Positions 3,842 through 58,609 of a DNA stretch of 64,000 bases are shown here, one piece after another. Origin of the DNA: a virus. Its lineage: Duplodnaviria; Heunggongvirae; Uroviricota; Caudoviricetes. Position 1 is the first letter of the stretch. Every line of letters starts with the position of its first letter. The position numbers and the translations under genes are program-made. The notes beneath the pieces are model-generated. The model saw nothing but the letters and a program-made list of their open reading frames with translations. It had not been told where the DNA came from and ran no database searches. The stretch is taken from IMG/VR virus record IMGVR_UViG_3300009826_000019, positions 43,941 to 107,940 of that record. The stretch is one strand, 5' to 3'.

Positions 3842-4258
3842 ATGACAAAGACAGAGGTTAAACTTTTATATAATACATTACAGAGACAGGTTGAATTTGT
3901 AACTGAATTGGTGGACTCGGTAGACCAACACGTTGATATTTTGGGTTTGCCGTCATTTGCGGCGCAGTATTATAAAATGGTGGGTATGCGGCAAATGTTG
4001 GGTTTGACTGAAATTGCGAACAACAAAAGGCGGTTTTTTCTCTATGAGATAGATTTGCAGATAAATTACATTGAGCTACGTATTGCGTTGGATATGGTGG
4101 CAAAGGCCGAGGTTATTGAGGTAAAATGTGATTGTTGTGGCGGTTTAATGGATATTCATTCTGCGCACTATCCATGTGAAAATAACACAGACGTTGTTTT
4201 ATGTTACAGTTGTTTTTTAAGGTCGAATAACATATTTAGTAACAAAAATAAAGTATAA
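3842..4258 (+). CDS. hypothetical protein with Cys-rich C-terminus (CDCCGG...CYSC)
   Basis: ORF track; element at 3779. Confidence 0.55.
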   Translation: MTKTEVKLLYNTLQRQVEFVTELVDSVDQHVDILGLPSFAAQYYKMVGMRQMLGLTEIANNKRRFFLYEIDLQINYIELRIALDMVAKAEVIEVKCDCCGGLMDIHSAHYPCENNTDVVLCYSCFLRSNNIFSNKNKV

Positions 4259-6322: not shown

Positions 6323-6880
6323 ATGACAGAAAATAAAAGAAAAATATTTGAGAAAATTACCGATGTGTTGTTTTCTTGTGAAACAAAAGAGCATTTTCAA
6401 ACGTACAAAGGGTGGATTGAGAGATTACGTTGTAGTGGTACATTCGACACAAATGATATGATACTTATTTCAACTTTGAATGAGAAAAAGTTGGAGGCGG
6501 ATATAAAAATATTGTCGGCAAAGAAAACAATTATTGAGGAGTTGGAACGAGGTGCTATGTTTGTGGAAAGTTTAACAACACTTGAAAAAAGAGAGGTTAT
6601 TCGCGGTTTTGGAGACTTTATTTTAAGGTTTTTCAATAATAGAAACGAACAAAAACATTATTGCGTACACAATTTACCGTTGGGTATCAATTTATTGGAC
6701 TTCACGTTTGAAGATTATGTACCAACGTTGAAAATATATTTACAGCGACCAGGTCTTTTGATTGGTAAGGCTGGCGAAACGATTGACAGTTTGACAGAGG
6801 GTTTGAGAGAATTTTCAAAACAACCCAATTTACAAATTTCGATTGTAGAAACATTTGGATACAAAGATTACGATTGGTAG
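6323..6880 (+). CDS. hypothetical protein with C-terminal KH-like motif (GLLIGKAGETIDSL)
   Basis: GxxGxxG-type KH signature near the C-terminus; variant element at 6264. Confidence 0.55.
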   Translation: MTENKRKIFEKITDVLFSCETKEHFQTYKGWIERLRCSGTFDTNDMILISTLNEKKLEADIKILSAKKTIIEELERGAMFVESLTTLEKREVIRGFGDFILRFFNNRNEQKHYCVHNLPLGINLLDFTFEDYVPTLKIYLQRPGLLIGKAGETIDSLTEGLREFSKQPNLQISIVETFGYKDYDW

Positions 6881-6974
6881 TTAATACCATTAAGAAATAA
6901 GTTATTTTTATTTATTGTTGTTGTTGTGAGCGGGGGCGTGTTTTATTCACTTCCGCTTTTTCTACATGAAATAA

Positions 6975-7540: not shown

Positions 7541-7750
7541 ATGACAGATAGAGAAATAAGAATGTGGGGCGAATTAAACGCCGCTAGTATGACCAAAAGA
7601 GAATACTTTATTAGTGTCGCAATAAGCGGCATATTATCGAGTGGGAATTGGGTTTCGCCTCAACGTGTTAATAGTATGGCGATACAAATTGCTGATGACC
7701 TTGTATTGAAAATGCAGGAACGTTACACTAACGCCGAAGCATCGGAATAA
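7541..7750 (+). CDS. hypothetical protein
   Basis: ORF track; ends ...EASE* within the element. Confidence 0.5.
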   Translation: MTDREIRMWGELNAASMTKREYFISVAISGILSSGNWVSPQRVNSMAIQIADDLVLKMQERYTNAEASE

Positions 7751-7779
7751 TATCCTAATTTTATATTGAGGGTATAGTA
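7740..7779 (+). promoter_or_regulatory. PeSL-like element P12
   Basis: Consensus copy. Confidence 0.55.
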
Positions 7780-7805
7780 AATAACAATAATAAACAACAA
7801 AAAAA

Positions 7806-19080: not shown

Positions 19081-19130
19081 ATTGTATATATACAAAAACG
19101 TATATATACAATTTTGCATATATACAAAAA
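19081..19130 (+). promoter_or_regulatory. three TATATATACAA direct repeats (first is the palindrome TTGTATATATACAA) upstream of the DUF262 gene
   Basis: tgtatatatacaaaaacgtatatatacaattttgcatatatacaaaaatg. Confidence 0.45.
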
Positions 19131-19140
19131 TGAATACATA

Positions 19141-19680
19141 ATGAAAACTTTAGAACAATTAAGATTACATAACCCCTACGAAACGCGAGAGATGGGGTCT
19201 TCGCTGAAATATTTGAATAGGCGGTATCATGAGGGTAAAATTGATTTCAACGTTTATCTTACCTCAATAGACCAAAATTTACAACGCCCATTTGTTTGGA
19301 CACTGCATCAGAAGCAGGAGTTGGTGCGTTCAGTGTTTTATAGGCGACCGATTACCGATTTGACGATTATCAATCGTTTTGACGATACATTGGAAATAAT
19401 TGACGGAAAACAAAGATTACATAGTCTTTTGTTGTTTTTAAATAACGATTTCGGTTTGTGGTTTGACGAAAATGAATATCATAAATTTGAAACATTACCT
19501 CCCGATTATCAAAAGGAATTTGAAAATTATGTGGTACGTTATACTGAAATACTTGAATGGACAACCCCAATCCCCGATTTGTTTAAAATACAGTTTTTTA
19601 ATCAAATAAATTTTGCGGGTACTCCGCAGGATAGGGATCATATTAAGAGTTTAATGAAATTGTCAGGTACATCGGAATAA
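19141..19680 (+). CDS. DUF262 (ParB/GmrSD-N-like) domain protein
   Basis: QRPFVW...IIDGKQRLHSLLLFL matches the DUF262 DGQQR-type motif; unusual upstream region of three TATATATACAA repeats instead of the PeSL element. Confidence 0.55.
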   Translation: MKTLEQLRLHNPYETREMGSSLKYLNRRYHEGKIDFNVYLTSIDQNLQRPFVWTLHQKQELVRSVFYRRPITDLTIINRFDDTLEIIDGKQRLHSLLLFLNNDFGLWFDENEYHKFETLPPDYQKEFENYVVRYTEILEWTTPIPDLFKIQFFNQINFAGTPQDRDHIKSLMKLSGTSE

Positions 19681-20892: not shown

Positions 20893-21111
20893 ATGCAATA
20901 TAGAGGACAAAATATAGATATTGATACCGACAAATTGTGTGTATTAAAAGAGAATAACGAATTTGTTATCGGTTATTATGGTGCGGGTAGTATCTTTGTT
21001 ACGATTGATAAAACAGAAAGTTTTGAGGAGGCGGATGCTATTTTTGATTTACTTTACGATGGTTTACTTCAAGAAGAAGAATTTGAACGGAAAGTATTTG
21101 CATCGGAATAA
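20893..21111 (+). CDS. hypothetical protein, paralogue family C
   Basis: See 11112..11345. Confidence 0.55.
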   Translation: MQYRGQNIDIDTDKLCVLKENNEFVIGYYGAGSIFVTIDKTESFEEADAIFDLLYDGLLQEEEFERKVFASE

Positions 21112-21140
21112 TATTTTACTTTTATATTAAGAGCATAACA
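21101..21140 (+). promoter_or_regulatory. PeSL-like element P30
   Basis: Consensus copy. Confidence 0.55.
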
Positions 21141-21155
21141 AATAACATAACACAA

Positions 21156-21470
21156 ATGAAAACAACAGAGTTTGATATTTTAATCAATGATGACAATACT
21201 TTTTTAGCAGTAAAAAATGAGGTTGGCAACATAATAAAAAATAATCGTTTAATAGACGATAGAATTAACCAACTAAAAGAGTTGGGAATAAATTGTATAA
21301 ACAGGGCGGTTGGTTCGGGTGGTGTTGGTACTGTTCGTATTCAACGTAATGGAGTTGTAACAATGCAAATTAGTTACGGAAAATCAAATTGGAATTACGC
21401 TTGGTTGGCAGAAATTGGTTATTTTCGTAAAAACGAAAACAATCCTATTCAACGCACGTATTTTCTTTAA
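21156..21470 (+). CDS. hypothetical protein
   Basis: ORF track; element at 21101. Confidence 0.55.
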   Translation: MKTTEFDILINDDNTFLAVKNEVGNIIKNNRLIDDRINQLKELGINCINRAVGSGGVGTVRIQRNGVVTMQISYGKSNWNYAWLAEIGYFRKNENNPIQRTYFL

Positions 21471-21479
21471 AAATAATAT

Positions 21480-21642
21480 GGGAGTAGTGGCGGAGTTGGT
21501 TTAACGCAGGGGGCGATAAGGGAAAGCGAATGTCTGATAAGAAGTTGGAATAGCAATGCGAACCGTAAAACCCGAAACCCCACGATAACAACTAATTCGA
21601 CTTGTATGTTATCTCGTAGGTTCAAATCCTACCTATTCCCCT
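21480..21642 (+). ncRNA. aberrant tRNA-like element (~160 nt)
   Basis: Acceptor-like GGAGTAG...CTATTCC pairing; D-loop-like AGTTGGTTTAA; perfect T-arm GTAGG-TTCAAAT-CCTAC; ~85 nt inserted where the anticodon arm should be. Confidence 0.4.
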
Positions 21643-21654
21643 AATAAACAAACA

Positions 21655-21834
21655 ATGGATAATACTGAATGGAATCCTGGATATTCTCCTTGTTCAAATT
21701 GTTCGGAAACATATCGAAAAAGACCTCGTTGTAAAAAATTGGGGTGTCCTGTTTATGTGGAAATTGAACGTAAAGCAGATGATTTACTTGAAAAATACTC
21801 AAATGAGTATAGTATTAAAAGAAGATCGGAATAA
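21655..21834 (+). CDS. small Cys-rich (zinc-ribbon-like) protein, 59 aa
   Basis: Manual ORF; CSNCSE...CKKLGC; the stop is supplied by the next PeSL-like element (RSE*). Confidence 0.4.
   Translation: MDNTEWNPGYSPCSNCSETYRKRPRCKKLGCPVYVEIERKADDLLEKYSNEYSIKRRSE
21796..21809 (+). promoter_or_regulatory. TACTCAAATGAGTA motif
   Basis: Inside small ORF 21655..21834, where it encodes YSNEY. Confidence 0.5.
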
Positions 21835-21863
21835 TATTGTATTTTTATATTAAGAACATAACA
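21824..21863 (+). promoter_or_regulatory. PeSL-like element P31
   Basis: GATCGGAATAATATTGTATTTTTATATTAAGAACATAAC. Confidence 0.5.
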
Positions 21864-21881
21864 AAAATAATAATAATAAAA

Positions 21882-46898: not shown

Positions 46899-48599
46899 AT
46901 GTACAAAAATAATTATGCAACCATAGAAGAGAGTATAGGTAGGATGCAGAAACTTATGGGCAACACCGCGCCGGTGGTTCGCACGGAACAAGTGCTTGGA
47001 AACATTGAAAAGGTGTATAGGGGTCATGATAATAATGCTTATGCTATTGTAAAAGAAAATTCACACTACTATTTAAAAGTATCAGGAAAAACATCAGATT
47101 TGTCTTTGAACGATTTTGAATATTTGGGTGGAAACAGACAATGTAAAAATCTGTATGAATATAGTTCCTTTGCCAATGCAGAGAAGTTCCTTAAAGAACA
47201 TTTAATTACCTTGAACCAACAGGTTAACAACCAAGAATTACTTAAAGAAGAAGCAAAACGTGTTGATACCAACCTTGAAAAAACCGCTACTTCAACAGCA
47301 ATGCGCAGTGAAATAGACCGTATTCGTGAGATTATGGAAAACACCAATAGAATTAATAAAGGTGGTAGTGCAAGTGTTGTTAAGAAATCTCTAAACGAAA
47401 AAGTAAATATCGCTAACGAAGAGAGTGGTATGATTACCGATAGTGTGAACGAAGAACCCGTAAACGAAATTATTAGCAATGCTATTAAAAATGTTGCTAG
47501 TGGAATTGGTAATATGGGTGCCGGTGTTATTCACGGTCAAACAACAGAAGGAAGCGAAGAACCTGTGAATGAATTTGTCAGTAACGCCATAAAAAACGTT
47601 GCTAGTGGAATTGGTAATATGGGTGCCGGTGTTATTCACGGTCAAACAACAGAAGGAAGCGAAGACGACGAACTTGAACTCGAATTAGACGGTGATGACG
47701 AATTTGATTTAGACGACGAATTTGACAGCGAAGAAGAAAATGAATTTGAAGAAGATTTGGAAGACGAATTTGACGGTGAAGAAGACGAAGAAATGTCAAT
47801 GCTAAATGCTTTAATGGATAAGTTGAATAGTATTGAAGAAAAATTAGACGGTGCTGACAGCGAAGAAGGTGAATTTGAAATAGATTTAGACGACGATAGC
47901 GAAGGTGAATTTGATTTAGACGAATGTGGTGTAGTTGGTGAAGGTGACGATATTGAAGAAGCGTTTCTATCTGACAAACTCAACGCAAAATATGGTACAT
48001 TACCAAAACAAGCCGATGAAGCAAAAGCAAATTTTGAAAGAGTTATCACATCTTGGTTGGAAAGAGACCGACCTGGTATGAGTCCAACAGAATTAGCAAA
48101 CGCACTTAAAGCAAAAATAGACGAAATAGTTGCCGAAGAAGAATCAGACGATATTGATAACCCACTGTTTGATGACCCCGATGACAGAATGACGGGTACT
48201 ATGGGTGAAGCCAATATGAAAAGAATGGTTCAAAAAATTATTAAAGAAACTATTAGTACAATCGCTTCTGATGTAACAAAAGATAATTTTGGATATACTA
48301 ACGCCGAACCGGATAGTAAAGGTAGAACGAGTTTTGATAACCCAAAAGCCGAAAAAGAAATTGGTTTAGGTAATCACCACGAAGATACACTTGATCAAAT
48401 TAAATCAACAACAGGAAATCATTCTAAACCTTCAACAGGTAGTACACCAGCAGGTAAAGTTGCTAACGTTATTGACGATATAGAAGTTGAAATCGTTGAT
48501 TGTTGTGAGTCAAAAAACAAAAAACCTCTCTACATTGTAGAACAAGACGGAACAGTTATTGGTAAAATTGCACGTGAAACGTTGAAGAAGCGTAAATAA
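46899..48599 (+). CDS. highly acidic low-complexity protein (566 aa) with 37-aa tandem duplication; putative scaffold/internal head protein
   Basis: EEPVNE(I/F)(I/V)SNAIKNVASGIGNMGAGVIHGQTTEGSE x2; long D/E tracts; antisense ORFs rejected. Confidence 0.55.
   Translation: MYKNNYATIEESIGRMQKLMGNTAPVVRTEQVLGNIEKVYRGHDNNAYAIVKENSHYYLKVSGKTSDLSLNDFEYLGGNRQCKNLYEYSSFANAEKFLKEHLITLNQQVNNQELLKEEAKRVDTNLEKTATSTAMRSEIDRIREIMENTNRINKGGSASVVKKSLNEKVNIANEESGMITDSVNEEPVNEIISNAIKNVASGIGNMGAGVIHGQTTEGSEEPVNEFVSNAIKNVASGIGNMGAGVIHGQTTEGSEDDELELELDGDDEFDLDDEFDSEEENEFEEDLEDEFDGEEDEEMSMLNALMDKLNSIEEKLDGADSEEGEFEIDLDDDSEGEFDLDECGVVGEGDDIEEAFLSDKLNAKYGTLPKQADEAKANFERVITSWLERDRPGMSPTELANALKAKIDEIVAEEESDDIDNPLFDDPDDRMTGTMGEANMKRMVQKIIKETISTIASDVTKDNFGYTNAEPDSKGRTSFDNPKAEKEIGLGNHHEDTLDQIKSTTGNHSKPSTGSTPAGKVANVIDDIEVEIVDCCESKNKKPLYIVEQDGTVIGKIARETLKKRK
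47449..47660 (+). repeat. 111-bp tandem duplication (two units) within 46899..48599
   Basis: The 3' ~65 bp of each unit are identical; the 5' halves differ at synonymous or conservative sites. Confidence 0.85.
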
Positions 48600-49394: not shown

Positions 49395-51311
49395 TTAATT
49401 AACTTCTTCCGCTTCCTGTGGTCCACCGGCGGTTGCTTTACTGAAATCAAAATCACCAAATGGGTTGTCCGCACCCATATTAGCAAACGGATTGCTTGGG
49501 TTTCCACCACCAGGGTTATTTGCCGCATACAATCTTGTTGAAATCGGTATCCACACCTCATCCATTTTCTTTGCTAACTCATCCACCTTTTCGTGGTTTT
49601 CGGTTTTAATAACTTCCTTCAATTCGTCAATCACCGTTTGGATTTTTATTTTTTCCTCATCGGTAATTTTATCACCCATTTCGTCAATTTGTTTTTCGGT
49701 TGAGAAAATTATGGAGTCCGCCTTATTCATAGCTAAAACCTTTTCCATTTTTTTCTTATCCGCTTCGGCGTTATCTTCTGCTTCACGTTTCATTCTTTCA
49801 ACCTCTTCTGACGATAATCCTGATGAAGATTGAATGGTGATATGTTGTTCTTTGTTTGTCCCTTTATCAGTTGCTTTAACAGACATAATACCGTTGGCAT
49901 CAATACTAAATGTTACCTCTATTTGTGGTGTACCGCGCCTTGCCGGTGGAATACCATCTAAATCAAATTGACCTAATAGTTTATTATCATTGAAAGAGGG
50001 GCGTTCACCTTGGGCTACGCGAATGGTTACTGCCGGTTGGTTATCAACTGCTGTGCTGAAAATTTGTGATTTTGAAACAGGGATTGTTGTGTTCGCATCA
50101 ATAAGTTTTGTGAACACACTACCCATAGTTTCGATACCTAATGAAAGTGGTGTGACATCTAAAAGTAGAACGTCTTGTGTTTCACCACTTAACACAGACC
50201 CTTGAACTGCTGCTCCAAGGGCAACAACTTGGTCGGGATGTACACTTTTGTTTGGTTTTCTCCCAAAAAACTTCTCAACAGCCTCTTGTACAGCGGGAAT
50301 ACGAGTACTACCACCAACAAGAATTACTTCGTCAATATCACTTGTGGTTATACCTGCGCTTTTCAATGCTGATTTACAAGGTTCGATTGTGCGTTTAACG
50401 ATAGTTTCTATCATTTGTTCAAATTTCGCACGTGTAATCGTTTGCACGAGGTGTTTTGGTACACCGTCAACCGGCATAATGTATGGAAGATTTATTTCTG
50501 TTTGAACTGAACTTGACAACTCAATTTTCGCCTTCTCAGCGGCTTCTTTCAGGCGTTGTAATGCCATTGGGTCTTTTTTCAAATCAATGGCGTATTCCTT
50601 ATTAAATTCGTCAGCAAGATAATTTATAATGACATGGTCAATATCATCACCCCCCAACCTTGTATCGCCGTCAGTGGATTTGACTTCAAACACACCACCA
50701 CCGAGTTCAAGTATTGATATATCGAATGTACCCCCACCGAAGTCAAATACAGCAATTTTCATATCGTCTTTCTTATCTAAACCAAAAGCCAATGCTGCTG
50801 CCGTAGGTTCATTAATTATACGAGCGACTTCTAATCCGGCTATTTCACCCGCTTCTTTGGTTGCTTGACGCTGTGAATCGGAAAAATAAGCCGGTACAGT
50901 GATAACTGCTTTAACCACCTCTGTTCCAAGAAAATCTTCCGCTGTTTTCCGCATTTTTTGCAGGATTATTGCTGAAATTTCTTGTGGGGAATATTCTTTA
51001 TTTTCAATTTTAACACGAATAGTGTCATTAGTACCACTTACAAGTTCGTATGCAACTTTATCCTTTTCGTTGTTGATTGAACTATATTTTTCACCCATAA
51101 AACGCTTTATGGAATAAACCGTTTTTGTTGGATTAGTTACCGATTGGCGTTTCGCGGAATCTCCCACAACACGCTCACCGTCTTTTATAAAACCAACAAT
51201 TGAGGGGGTGGTGTCCTTCCCCTCACCGTTTGGAATAACCATTGGCTTACCACCTTCTACTACTGAAACACAAGAGTTACTTGTGCCTAAATCTATACCT
51301 ATTATTTTCAT
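49395..51311 (-). CDS. dnaK: Hsp70 chaperone DnaK
   Basis: [17 protein letters not shown]...; full-length 638 aa with canonical ATPase and substrate-binding regions. Confidence 0.9.
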
Positions 51312-58483: not shown

Positions 58484-58568
58484 TGGAAAGGGTAGGATTC
58501 GAACCTACGAAAGTCCGAAGACAGCGGAGTTACAGTCCGCCCCAATTGACCAACTATGGGACCTTTCC
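58484..58568 (-). tRNA. tRNA-Tyr (GTA), class II
   Basis: Acceptor GGAAAGG/CCTTTCC; anticodon arm GCGGA-CTGTAAC-TCCGC; variable arm GTC-TTCG-GAC; T-arm GTAGG-TTCGAAT-CCTAC. Confidence 0.75.
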
Positions 58569-58569
58569 A

Positions 58570-58609
58570 AACATTTTATCCAAAATAATATTCACATATT
58601 ATTCCGATC
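58570..58609 (-). promoter_or_regulatory. PeSL-like promoter element inside the tRNA cluster (minus strand)
   Basis: Minus strand reads AAGATCGGAATAATATGTGAATATTATTTTGGATAAAATG just upstream of tRNA-Tyr. Confidence 0.5.

Follow-up and report, generated by a model that had tools for sequence, protein, structure and literature searches.

The closest known analogue of the element described here is species 1 RNA of the T4-type phage T4 (rnaC; NC_000866 70908-71046), a 139-nt RNA in which an acceptor-like end stem lies beside a T arm (CCGGG-TTCGAAT-CCCGG), a hairpin occupies the variable-arm site and a long hairpin replaces the D and anticodon arms. Its role has not been established (PMC3014915, PMC12685909), and it likewise has no Rfam family. 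We analysed a 64,000-nt stretch of AT-rich DNA from a giant phage (positions 43,941 to 107,940 of IMG/VR record IMGVR_UViG_3300009826_000019; hereafter the window, whose positions are used for all numbering of the element) that encodes a T4-type portal protein, an Hsp70 and 11 tRNA genes, and that carries at 21481-21640 on the + strand a tRNA-shaped element of 160 nt. We judge the chances to be about even that this element encodes a small RNA with the shape of a tRNA but no decoding role. Given that the same design recurs in many other phages, the RNA is more likely to be functional than to be the product of a damaged tRNA gene.

The plan of rnaC resembles that of the window element in outline, but a covariance model of the class described below (R1) gave the rnaC region only 18.7 bits. 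The T4 RNA differs in that it has no D arm and adjoins the T4 tRNA cluster. In sequence the two are similar in the T loop and nowhere else, and blastn of the window element against the T4 locus (word 7, E ≤ 5) matched only the T arms of tRNAs and not rnaC itself (3909-4047 on the - strand of that locus, L003). Homologues of rnaC were found in 748 phage records, nearly all of them from Enterobacterales phages, at 80-100% identity. Within rnaC an internal stretch, ACGGAACG, can pair with the 3' acceptor-like strand, and the Rfam tRNA-Sec model aligns from the start of this internal ACGGAACG (17.5 bits); a parallel oddity in the window element occurs at chance level in its class. In one GenBank record (OQ599310.1) this region is labelled tRNA-Lys.

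Other phage and engineered RNAs follow a related logic. The C4 antisense RNA of P1 and P7 and the M3 RNA of phi80 are matured by ribonuclease P (RNase P) without being tRNAs, and in engineered tRNA scaffolds a cargo replaces the anticodon arm; what these RNAs would share with the window element is an acceptor/T-arm module that recruits tRNA-processing enzymes and stabilises an RNA that does not decode. Unlike C4, the element showed no local antisense target: complementarity to its own flanks was not in excess, and a C4-like local antisense RNA was rejected as an explanation on that ground. YrlA (Rfam RF02553) is likewise a non-coding RNA, also found in phages, with a tRNA-like module made of a T arm, a D arm and an acceptor-like stem. 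In YrlA, however, the RNA ends make the stem to which Ro60 binds, and a cap closes the acceptor-like stem, whereas the ends of the window element themselves form the acceptor stem, and no RF02553 match was obtained at E ≤ 10.

Anatomy of the window element

The outer parts of the element were assigned on the + strand from sequence, fold and alignment to R1. The 5' strand of the acceptor stem, GGAGTAG (21481-21487), pairs at 7/7 positions with CTATTCC (21633-21639), with one G.U at 4:69, and aligns to the acceptor stem of R1; a G at position -1 (21480) can pair with the discriminator C73 (21640) and so extend the stem to 8 bp, as in tRNA-His, an arrangement that the phage's own tRNA-His shares. 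U8, G9, the D arm and A26 follow at 21488-21508, the D arm being composed of GCG (21490-21492), the loop GAGTTGGTTTAA with its GG (21493-21504) and CGC (21505-21507). This 3-bp D stem with G18G19 is of the class II (Leu-type) form, and stem and loop together resemble tRNA-Leu. At the position of the class II long variable arm lies a hairpin (21584-21613) in which GATAACA (21584-21590) pairs with TGTTATC (21607-21613) across a 16-nt loop, and it is followed by a T arm (21616-21632) of GTAGG (21616-21620), TTCAAAT (21621-21627) and CCTAC (21628-21632) that shares 19 of 20 bases with its counterpart in the tRNA-Tyr gene of the window (58491-58510). None of the conserved bases U8, G18G19 and T54-T55-C56 is missing. 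The acceptor stem, the D-arm-like pairing, the textbook T arm and the 7-bp GATAACA/TGTTATC helix that a preliminary description of this DNA had reported were thus all confirmed.

The 3' end consists of the discriminator and a CTA trailer (21641-21643), and CCA is not encoded, as is also the case for the phage's own tRNA genes. The trailer form N73-C-N-A matches both those of related elements (ACAA in 30/70, ACTA in 10/70) and those of the phage's own tRNA genes. With class II tRNAs (tRNA-Leu, -Tyr and -Ser of bacteria and phages) the element thus has in common the 7-bp acceptor stem, U8, the 3-bp D stem with a GG loop, the long variable-arm hairpin and the T arm; it differs in having a 73-nt branched domain in place of a 5-bp/7-nt anticodon arm.

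Minimum-energy folds predict that this domain is closed at the anticodon-stem position by a helix of GGGG (21509-21512) and CCCC (21578-21581) that encloses 65 nt of interior (21513-21577) in place of the anticodon loop. Thermodynamic prediction places within it an internal loop, then a helix of GGG (21520-21522) and CCC (21571-21573), and two hairpins, TCTGAT-AAGAA-GTTGGA (21533-21549) and TGCG-AAC-CGTA (21557-21567). The insertion of about 85 nt that had been described earlier therefore stands as to the presence of extra sequence and not as a single block, since it resolves into the 73-nt domain and the separate 30-nt hairpin; a hairpin at the variable-arm site was also seen in several related elements (L129, L121 and L049).

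Two short repeats were examined against chance. The second acceptor-like GGAATAG noted earlier at 21547 is present (21547-21553) and compatible with chance (p about 0.04 in shuffles), and such a repeat occurs in 4/70 related elements against 3.3 expected; an internal second acceptor strand acting as a conformational switch was rejected as a class feature on that count. A direct repeat of CGATAA on either side of a 69-nt block is compatible with chance (p = 0.22, shuffles) and is not a class feature, and its interpretation as a target-site duplication was set aside as not significant.

The absence of a canonical anticodon arm, which the preliminary description had remarked on, was borne out: no arm with a 5-bp stem, 7-nt loop and U33 was found by ARAGORN at default settings or by the deletion scan described below, and the 17 nt after position 26 are unable to pair as one. 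ARAGORN at default made no call on the element and Rfam gave no match at gathering score; the searches suggested earlier, ARAGORN in intron and tmRNA modes and Rfam, were blank at default and gathering score. When the Rfam threshold was relaxed to E ≤ 10, the sole match was to tRNA (18.9 bits, E 0.22, against a gathering score of 29 bits), starting at the internal GGAATAG (21547), and there was no match to any tmRNA, intron, ribozyme, riboswitch or Y RNA family.

An intron-containing tRNA was one of the explanations proposed at the outset, according to which a true class II tRNA gene would be restored to decoding by splicing. The normal tRNA ends agree with this, and in intron mode at 80% stringency ARAGORN proposed a tRNA-Ile(aat) with a 77-nt intron, but two pairs in the anticodon stem of that proposal, a G.U and a G.A, are not Watson-Crick. 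In the deletion scan every single segment of 30-114 nt was removed (3486 variants) and ARAGORN was run on each variant, with 15 elements of shuffled interior as the control. Calls were returned for 129 variants, among them a tRNA-Arg(tcg) on removal of 28-108, but the anticodon stems proposed contain mismatches, the calls were mostly nonsensical Pro(ggg) and the shuffled interiors gave 3-399; a hidden anticodon arm or intron was rejected because the scan performed no better than these controls. The 73-nt insert is, moreover, far too short for a group I intron, whose core is ~200 nt or more (RF00028), no group I intron or ribozyme was matched at E ≤ 10, and related elements of even 108-117 nt also have no anticodon arm. 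A spliced, decoding tRNA is accordingly very improbable.

Two further early proposals, an integration-site (att) remnant and a transfer-messenger RNA (tmRNA)-like mini element acting as a rescue RNA, fared worse still, and we consider it extremely improbable that either is correct. That tRNA genes are common integration targets and that the internal GGAATAG repeats the 5' acceptor strand would suit the former, yet integration duplicates the 3' part of a tRNA and not the 5' strand, both tRNA halves are present here and mutually paired, the internal repeat does not recur beyond chance in related elements, and no integrase was seen, the five neighbouring open reading frames (ORFs) scanned having no Pfam match (the scan did not include every small ORF nearby). 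With tmRNA the element has in common its acceptor and T arms and a large insert at the place of the anticodon arm, and GCG AAT GTC TGA TAA (21526-21540) can be read as an Ala-started tag followed by two stop codons. It differs in having a true D stem, A3-U70 and G4.U69 rather than G3.U70, a length of 160 nt, no series of pseudoknots and no convincing tag frame, and neither the tmRNA mode of ARAGORN nor Rfam gave a call.

Long tRNA-shell elements in other phages

Related elements were sought in viral contigs with the pattern TGGCGGARTTGGT-N(100-130)-GGTTCRAATCC, which matched at least 119 viral loci, and an element was accepted where the 7 nt before the first motif paired at ≥6/7 positions with the 7 nt after the T stem. 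The class so obtained was delimited in this analysis, as no published definition was found. Among the matches listed, 78 of 119 viral contigs carried an acceptor-paired element, compared with 1.6 expected by chance, and 85 elements of 108-170 nt (median 153) were defined. A control scan of bacterial genomes, with A fixed at R in the pattern, returned 120 matches, of which 109 failed the acceptor filter and ~5 were true long elements, the rest being mostly tandem tRNAs; a G-variant of the pattern applied to metagenomes likewise returned mostly tandem tRNAs and two true elements.

The shell of the class is of the tRNA-Leu type, with the D arm TGGCGGAATTGGTAGACGC and A73, and matches host tRNA-Leu genes; A73 is present in 66/77 elements and T at position -1 in 54/77. 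What lies between the D and T arms varies, on the other hand, to an extreme degree, the 77 elements falling into 57 unrelated interior types that average 97 nt, and no k-mer or motif was shared above shuffled expectation across 58 interior types. The short elements (108-117 nt) likewise have no anticodon arm. In the 18 loci of related elements that were scanned, ARAGORN called none of the long elements, and Rfam assigned them to no family other than tRNA, whose model just passes threshold on some members (32-46 bits) by treating the interior as a 48-90-nt local insertion.

Structural conservation was assessed on 57 aligned representatives. Each of the seven acceptor pairs occurs in many Watson-Crick versions; since elements were selected for this pairing, its covariation does not by itself count as independent evidence. 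No filter touched the outer three pairs of the T stem, which are 100% paired and covarying. In one interior subfamily compensatory changes occur in 13/43 predicted pairs, six of them in interior helices, and one interior is found combined with four distinct acceptor stems; in a second subfamily the compensation falls mainly in the acceptor stem. By these substitution patterns the class interiors are under structural selection. Covariation in homologues, which had been named at the outset as a test, was therefore obtained for the class shell (outer T-stem pairs) and for one interior subfamily, and not for the window element's own interior, for which no homologue was found by blastn against 50,697 phage records (T-arm matches only), by exact 24-mers in viral contigs or by a G-variant two-anchor pattern in viral and metagenome contigs.

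The membership of the window element was evaluated with R1, a covariance model built from the 57 representatives with the window element left out. R1 aligned end to end with window 21481-21643 (51.4 bits, E 6e-12), while decoys having both search motifs but no element scored 13-25 bits, so that its tRNA shell exceeds a chance resemblance. Ordinary tRNA-Leu genes reach up to 47 bits with this model (the window's own tRNA-Leu, 31.9), and because they do, R1 recognises the shell and fails to separate long elements from tRNA-Leu; the long insert was for this reason read directly from the alignment and not from the R1 score. The window element has more than 100 nt between its ends, a 7-bp acceptor stem, a D arm of the class II form and a T arm, as well as a folded insert in the 50-110-nt range of the class, closed by a helix from position 27 (predicted here as GGGG/CCCC), and it is intergenic, on the same strand as its flanking genes and a few bases from them. 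G-1 and C73 together occur in only 1/77 related elements besides the window element. In view of G-1/C73, the D loop and the tRNA-Tyr-like T arm, we regard it as the same kind of object as the class, possibly derived independently from the phage's class II tRNAs.

The class elements are intergenic and share the strand of the adjacent ORFs, from which a few bases separate them; they belong to early or replication modules. In Bacteroidota phages an element is located between DUF2303-like and NinG-like genes of a replication/recombination module and shares their strand, with 7 nt separating it from the preceding gene and 19 nt from the NinG-like gene that follows, and at least 4 different interiors occupy this same syntenic place. 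On two Bacteroidota phage contigs a DUF2693-FD RNA motif (RF02926) lies shortly upstream of an element on the same strand (L010 791-839 (-), 76.5 bits; L026 576-626 (+), 59.9 bits), in L026 at a distance of about 80 nt. The cultured Bacteroides phage BF1-TP2 carries an element of 117 nt (PQ571263.1 3829-3945, corresponding to L262 2501-2617). The BF1-TP2 element lies under a coding sequence annotated as hypothetical protein gp8 (55 aa), which is probably a mis-annotation.

Multiple copies were found on contig L036 (IMGVR_UViG_3300042888_001929), where 13 full-length R1 matches of 89-145 nt with unrelated interiors alternate with small ORFs between 7183 and 12210. Their ends are near-identical (AGTCAGGTGGCGG... 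and ...ACAGGTTCGAATCCTGTCCTGACTACAA), and the contig also has 16 ordinary tRNA genes. One R1 match of 94 nt (7688-7781) is called tRNA-Ser(gga) by ARAGORN, leaving at least 12 non-tRNA copies, and three of the 13 score below 47 bits, a level that ordinary tRNA-Leu can reach.

The recurrence of the design bears on whether the window element is simply a decaying class II tRNA gene, a Tyr- or Leu-type duplicate that lost its anticodon arm to insertion or drift and is now inert. Such an origin would be in keeping with the 95% identity of its T arm to that of the phage's tRNA-Tyr, with the resemblance of its D stem to tRNA-Leu, with a score below the Rfam tRNA threshold, with an interior that has neither homologues nor special stability, and with the CGATAA repeat around the 69-nt block (p = 0.22). 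Neutral decay would not, however, be expected to remove the anticodon arm entirely and yet spare each of the 15 shell pairs along with the conserved loop bases; the element exactly fills an intergenic gap in a densely packed genome; and the same 'defect' is present, with structured interiors, in 78 viral contigs among the matches listed. We therefore consider an inert relic improbable.

The identity of the shell raises a different alternative, in which the RNA would be a tRNA mimic, aminoacylated by histidyl-tRNA synthetase (HisRS) by virtue of G-1:C73 or, in its relatives, by leucyl-tRNA synthetase (LeuRS) by virtue of A73 and the Leu core, or would act as a sink for host factors that attack or sense tRNAs, such as tRNA-directed defence nucleases or toxins that modify acceptor ends. 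In Escherichia coli, HisRS recognises its tRNA chiefly through G-1:C73, and LeuRS chiefly through A73 together with the tertiary core. The window element shares G-1:C73-C74 with the phage's own tRNA-His, 66/77 related elements keep A73 and the exact D arm of host tRNA-Leu, and phage tRNAs reportedly counter tRNA-cleaving defence. Charging is, however, purely conjectural, G-1 and C73 could have arisen together by chance, and a decoy role leaves the large, structured and diverse interiors unexplained, which makes a mimic quite improbable in our estimation.

Processing, function and competing explanations

The window element fills the gap between two same-strand early ORFs, beginning 10 nt after the stop codon of the upstream ORF and ending 14 nt before the start of the next. 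Directly before it there is no copy of the promoter-like repeat described below and no site from a sigma-70-type scan, and TAATAT (21474-21479) is too close to serve as the -10 box of a start at G21481. With no promoter directly before the element, its 5' end must come from processing.

Under the reading that we favour, a gene for a non-decoding small RNA, the element would be co-transcribed with its neighbours in a short early transcript, RNase P would cut at its 5' end, the 3' trailer would be trimmed and, because CCA is not encoded, CCA would be added, so releasing a stable RNA of ~160 nt; the excision would also sever the messenger RNA (mRNA) between the two ORFs. As engineered tRNA scaffolds do, the shell would secure processing and stabilise the RNA, and the interior would be the acting part, a lineage-specific module directed at a putative target. 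Bacterial RNase P prefers T (U) at position -1, the base found in 54/77 class elements, and trailers of the class are like those of real tRNA genes. While the shell anatomy, the insert, the placement and the recurrence were read directly, this mechanism is our inference. A tRNA-derived regulatory RNA, which the preliminary description had listed among its candidates, is the only one of them that fits the complete shell, the structured domain in place of the anticodon arm and the recurrence in phages.

The same placement could be explained by a cis-acting processing site ('tRNA punctuation'), in which the shell only draws RNase P and 3' enzymes, the interior is filler and the released RNA has no function, the cuts between the ORFs at 21156-21470 and 21655-21834 serving to set the ends and half-lives of the mRNAs. 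The tight packing of the window element against its two ORFs agrees with such a role, as do the spacing of the Bacteroidota elements (7 nt and 19 nt from their neighbours), the enrichment of T at -1, the absence of a sequence motif shared by the interior types, and contig L036, with its at least 12 non-tRNA elements of near-identical ends alternating with small ORFs. However, a minimal acceptor/T-arm helix or a 75-nt tRNA would suffice for punctuation, yet the interiors average 97 nt in compact genomes; interior helices are kept through compensatory changes; and at least 4 interiors have been retained at one syntenic slot rather than lost. Punctuation alone thus fits the large, conserved and compensated interiors less well than a functional small RNA does, and we think it unlikely.

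Several observations weigh against a functional small RNA at this locus. The other contigs that have the element represent the same phage at 99.9-100% identity and are therefore uninformative, which leaves its interior helices without covariation support, and its whole-molecule folding energy is ordinary compared with shuffles (z = -0.5). The element is a single copy in the 74 kb of this phage examined, the 10 kb that precede the window adding no second copy; the phage with the nearest relative of the upstream gene (63% identity) has no element at that site, nor do the two distant loci that are the other relatives of the neighbouring genes. No local antisense target was apparent, the interior scoring 9.5 nt against its own ±4 kb and 9.3 nt against unrelated loci, and no partner protein, target or shared interior motif was found. 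Across lineages there is no common neighbouring protein: the neighbours in Bacteroidota phages are ordinary replication/recombination genes, and the Cys-rich ORF downstream of the window element is unrelated to their NinG-like neighbour. Part of the R1 score is circular, inasmuch as the related elements were retrieved with motifs from the window element. The Leu identity marks of the class, T-1, A73 and the D loop GAATTGGTAGA, are replaced here by G-1, C73 and GAGTTGGTTTAA, and the window element may have arisen independently, by convergence, instead of being a homologue. Finally, the phage is uncultured and a transcript of its element is predicted from sequence.

With respect to the class as a whole, we tentatively suggest, as a proposal that we hold to be somewhat less probable than an even chance, that phages widely encode 'cargo tRNAs', in which the tRNA machinery of the host matures a tRNA shell, usually of the Leu type, that displays a hypervariable structured module, the window element being a divergent and possibly His-type (G-1:C73) member. 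Their range would extend from temperate Bacteroidota phages to giant phages, with up to a dozen paralogues per genome. The alternation of unrelated interiors at one slot is suggestive of diversifying selection such as acts on immunity or counter-defence functions. Full-text literature searches yielded no description of phage tRNA-shell elements with large variable inserts and Rfam 15 holds no family for them, so that they constitute a recurrent phage design without a family or a description in the searchable literature, akin in kind to the little-understood T4 species 1 RNA; a survey of viral structured RNAs refers to 'tRNA or tRNA-like' candidates in general terms only (PMC10690425). If the proposal is correct, an entire layer of small RNAs in phages escapes standard annotation, T4 species 1 RNA gains a broad comparative context, the 'tRNA scaffold' trick of RNA engineers is one that nature uses, and dozens of structured RNA modules become available whose targets can be searched for. 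BF1-TP2 provides a cultured system in which the class is experimentally accessible.

The early transcription unit and neighbouring features

Window positions 500-26000 form a region of small + strand ORFs in which each ORF or pair of ORFs is preceded by a ~55-nt repeat. The repeat takes the form CATCGGAATAATAT-N8-TTATATT-N5-GTATAAT-like, with about 34 + strand copies between 538 and 25735, and the pattern ATCGGAWTAMYA gave 40 matches against 4 expected; one further copy lies on the other strand inside the tRNA cluster (58597-58608 (-)). Judging from its place before small ORFs, the repeat looks like a phage-specific early promoter, and its upstream half is unlike a sigma-70 -35 box. A palindromic hairpin sequence, TACTCAAATGAGTA (repeat families D11/D12), occurs in 11 exact copies in the window (at 187, 3143, 6245, 9600, 13860, 18256, 20856, 21796, 23632, 26855 and 27724) against 0.02 expected, often directly before the promoter-like repeat. 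The promoter-early stem-loop cassettes of T4-type phages resemble this arrangement of hairpin and repeat.

The unit that contains the element is headed by a copy of the promoter-like repeat at 21097-21155 (CATCGGAATAATAT...TTATATT...GCATAAC) and continues on the + strand with the ORF at 21156-21470, the element, and the ORF at 21655-21834, which is the small Cys-rich ORF (59 aa) that had been noted earlier as starting at 21655 and whose presence was verified. Near the end of that ORF lies the TACTCAAATGAGTA hairpin at 21796-21809, the probable end of the transcription unit, to which a terminator or processing role may be ascribed, and the next promoter-like repeat follows at 21820-21878.

Several other features were recorded in the surrounding DNA. 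The window sequence is also present on a 368-kb metagenome contig, whose early region is tightly packed apart from two unusually long gaps of ~450 nt without called genes (L263 5170-5616 and 6166-6643), some 4.6 and 3.6 kb ahead of the point where the window begins; neither gap was hit by the tRNA-shell model or by ARAGORN. The relative without the element (L006) has, a few genes downstream, a 190-nt intergenic gap (6763-6952) with several hairpin-forming stretches that are not tRNA-like. In the window itself, an ORF of 566 aa at 46899-48599, without a Pfam or phage-database match, contains repeats rich in acidic codons at 47450-47930 (+), both tandem and dispersed, comprising a 105-nt unit present twice and 33-nt units of the GA(C/T)GA type. 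A small early ORF at 19114-19680 (+) encodes a GmrSD_N domain (N-terminal part of a type IV restriction endonuclease; E 2e-13), and the Hsp70/DnaK homologue at 49395-51311 (-) is full length at 638 aa (Pfam HSP70, E 3e-245).

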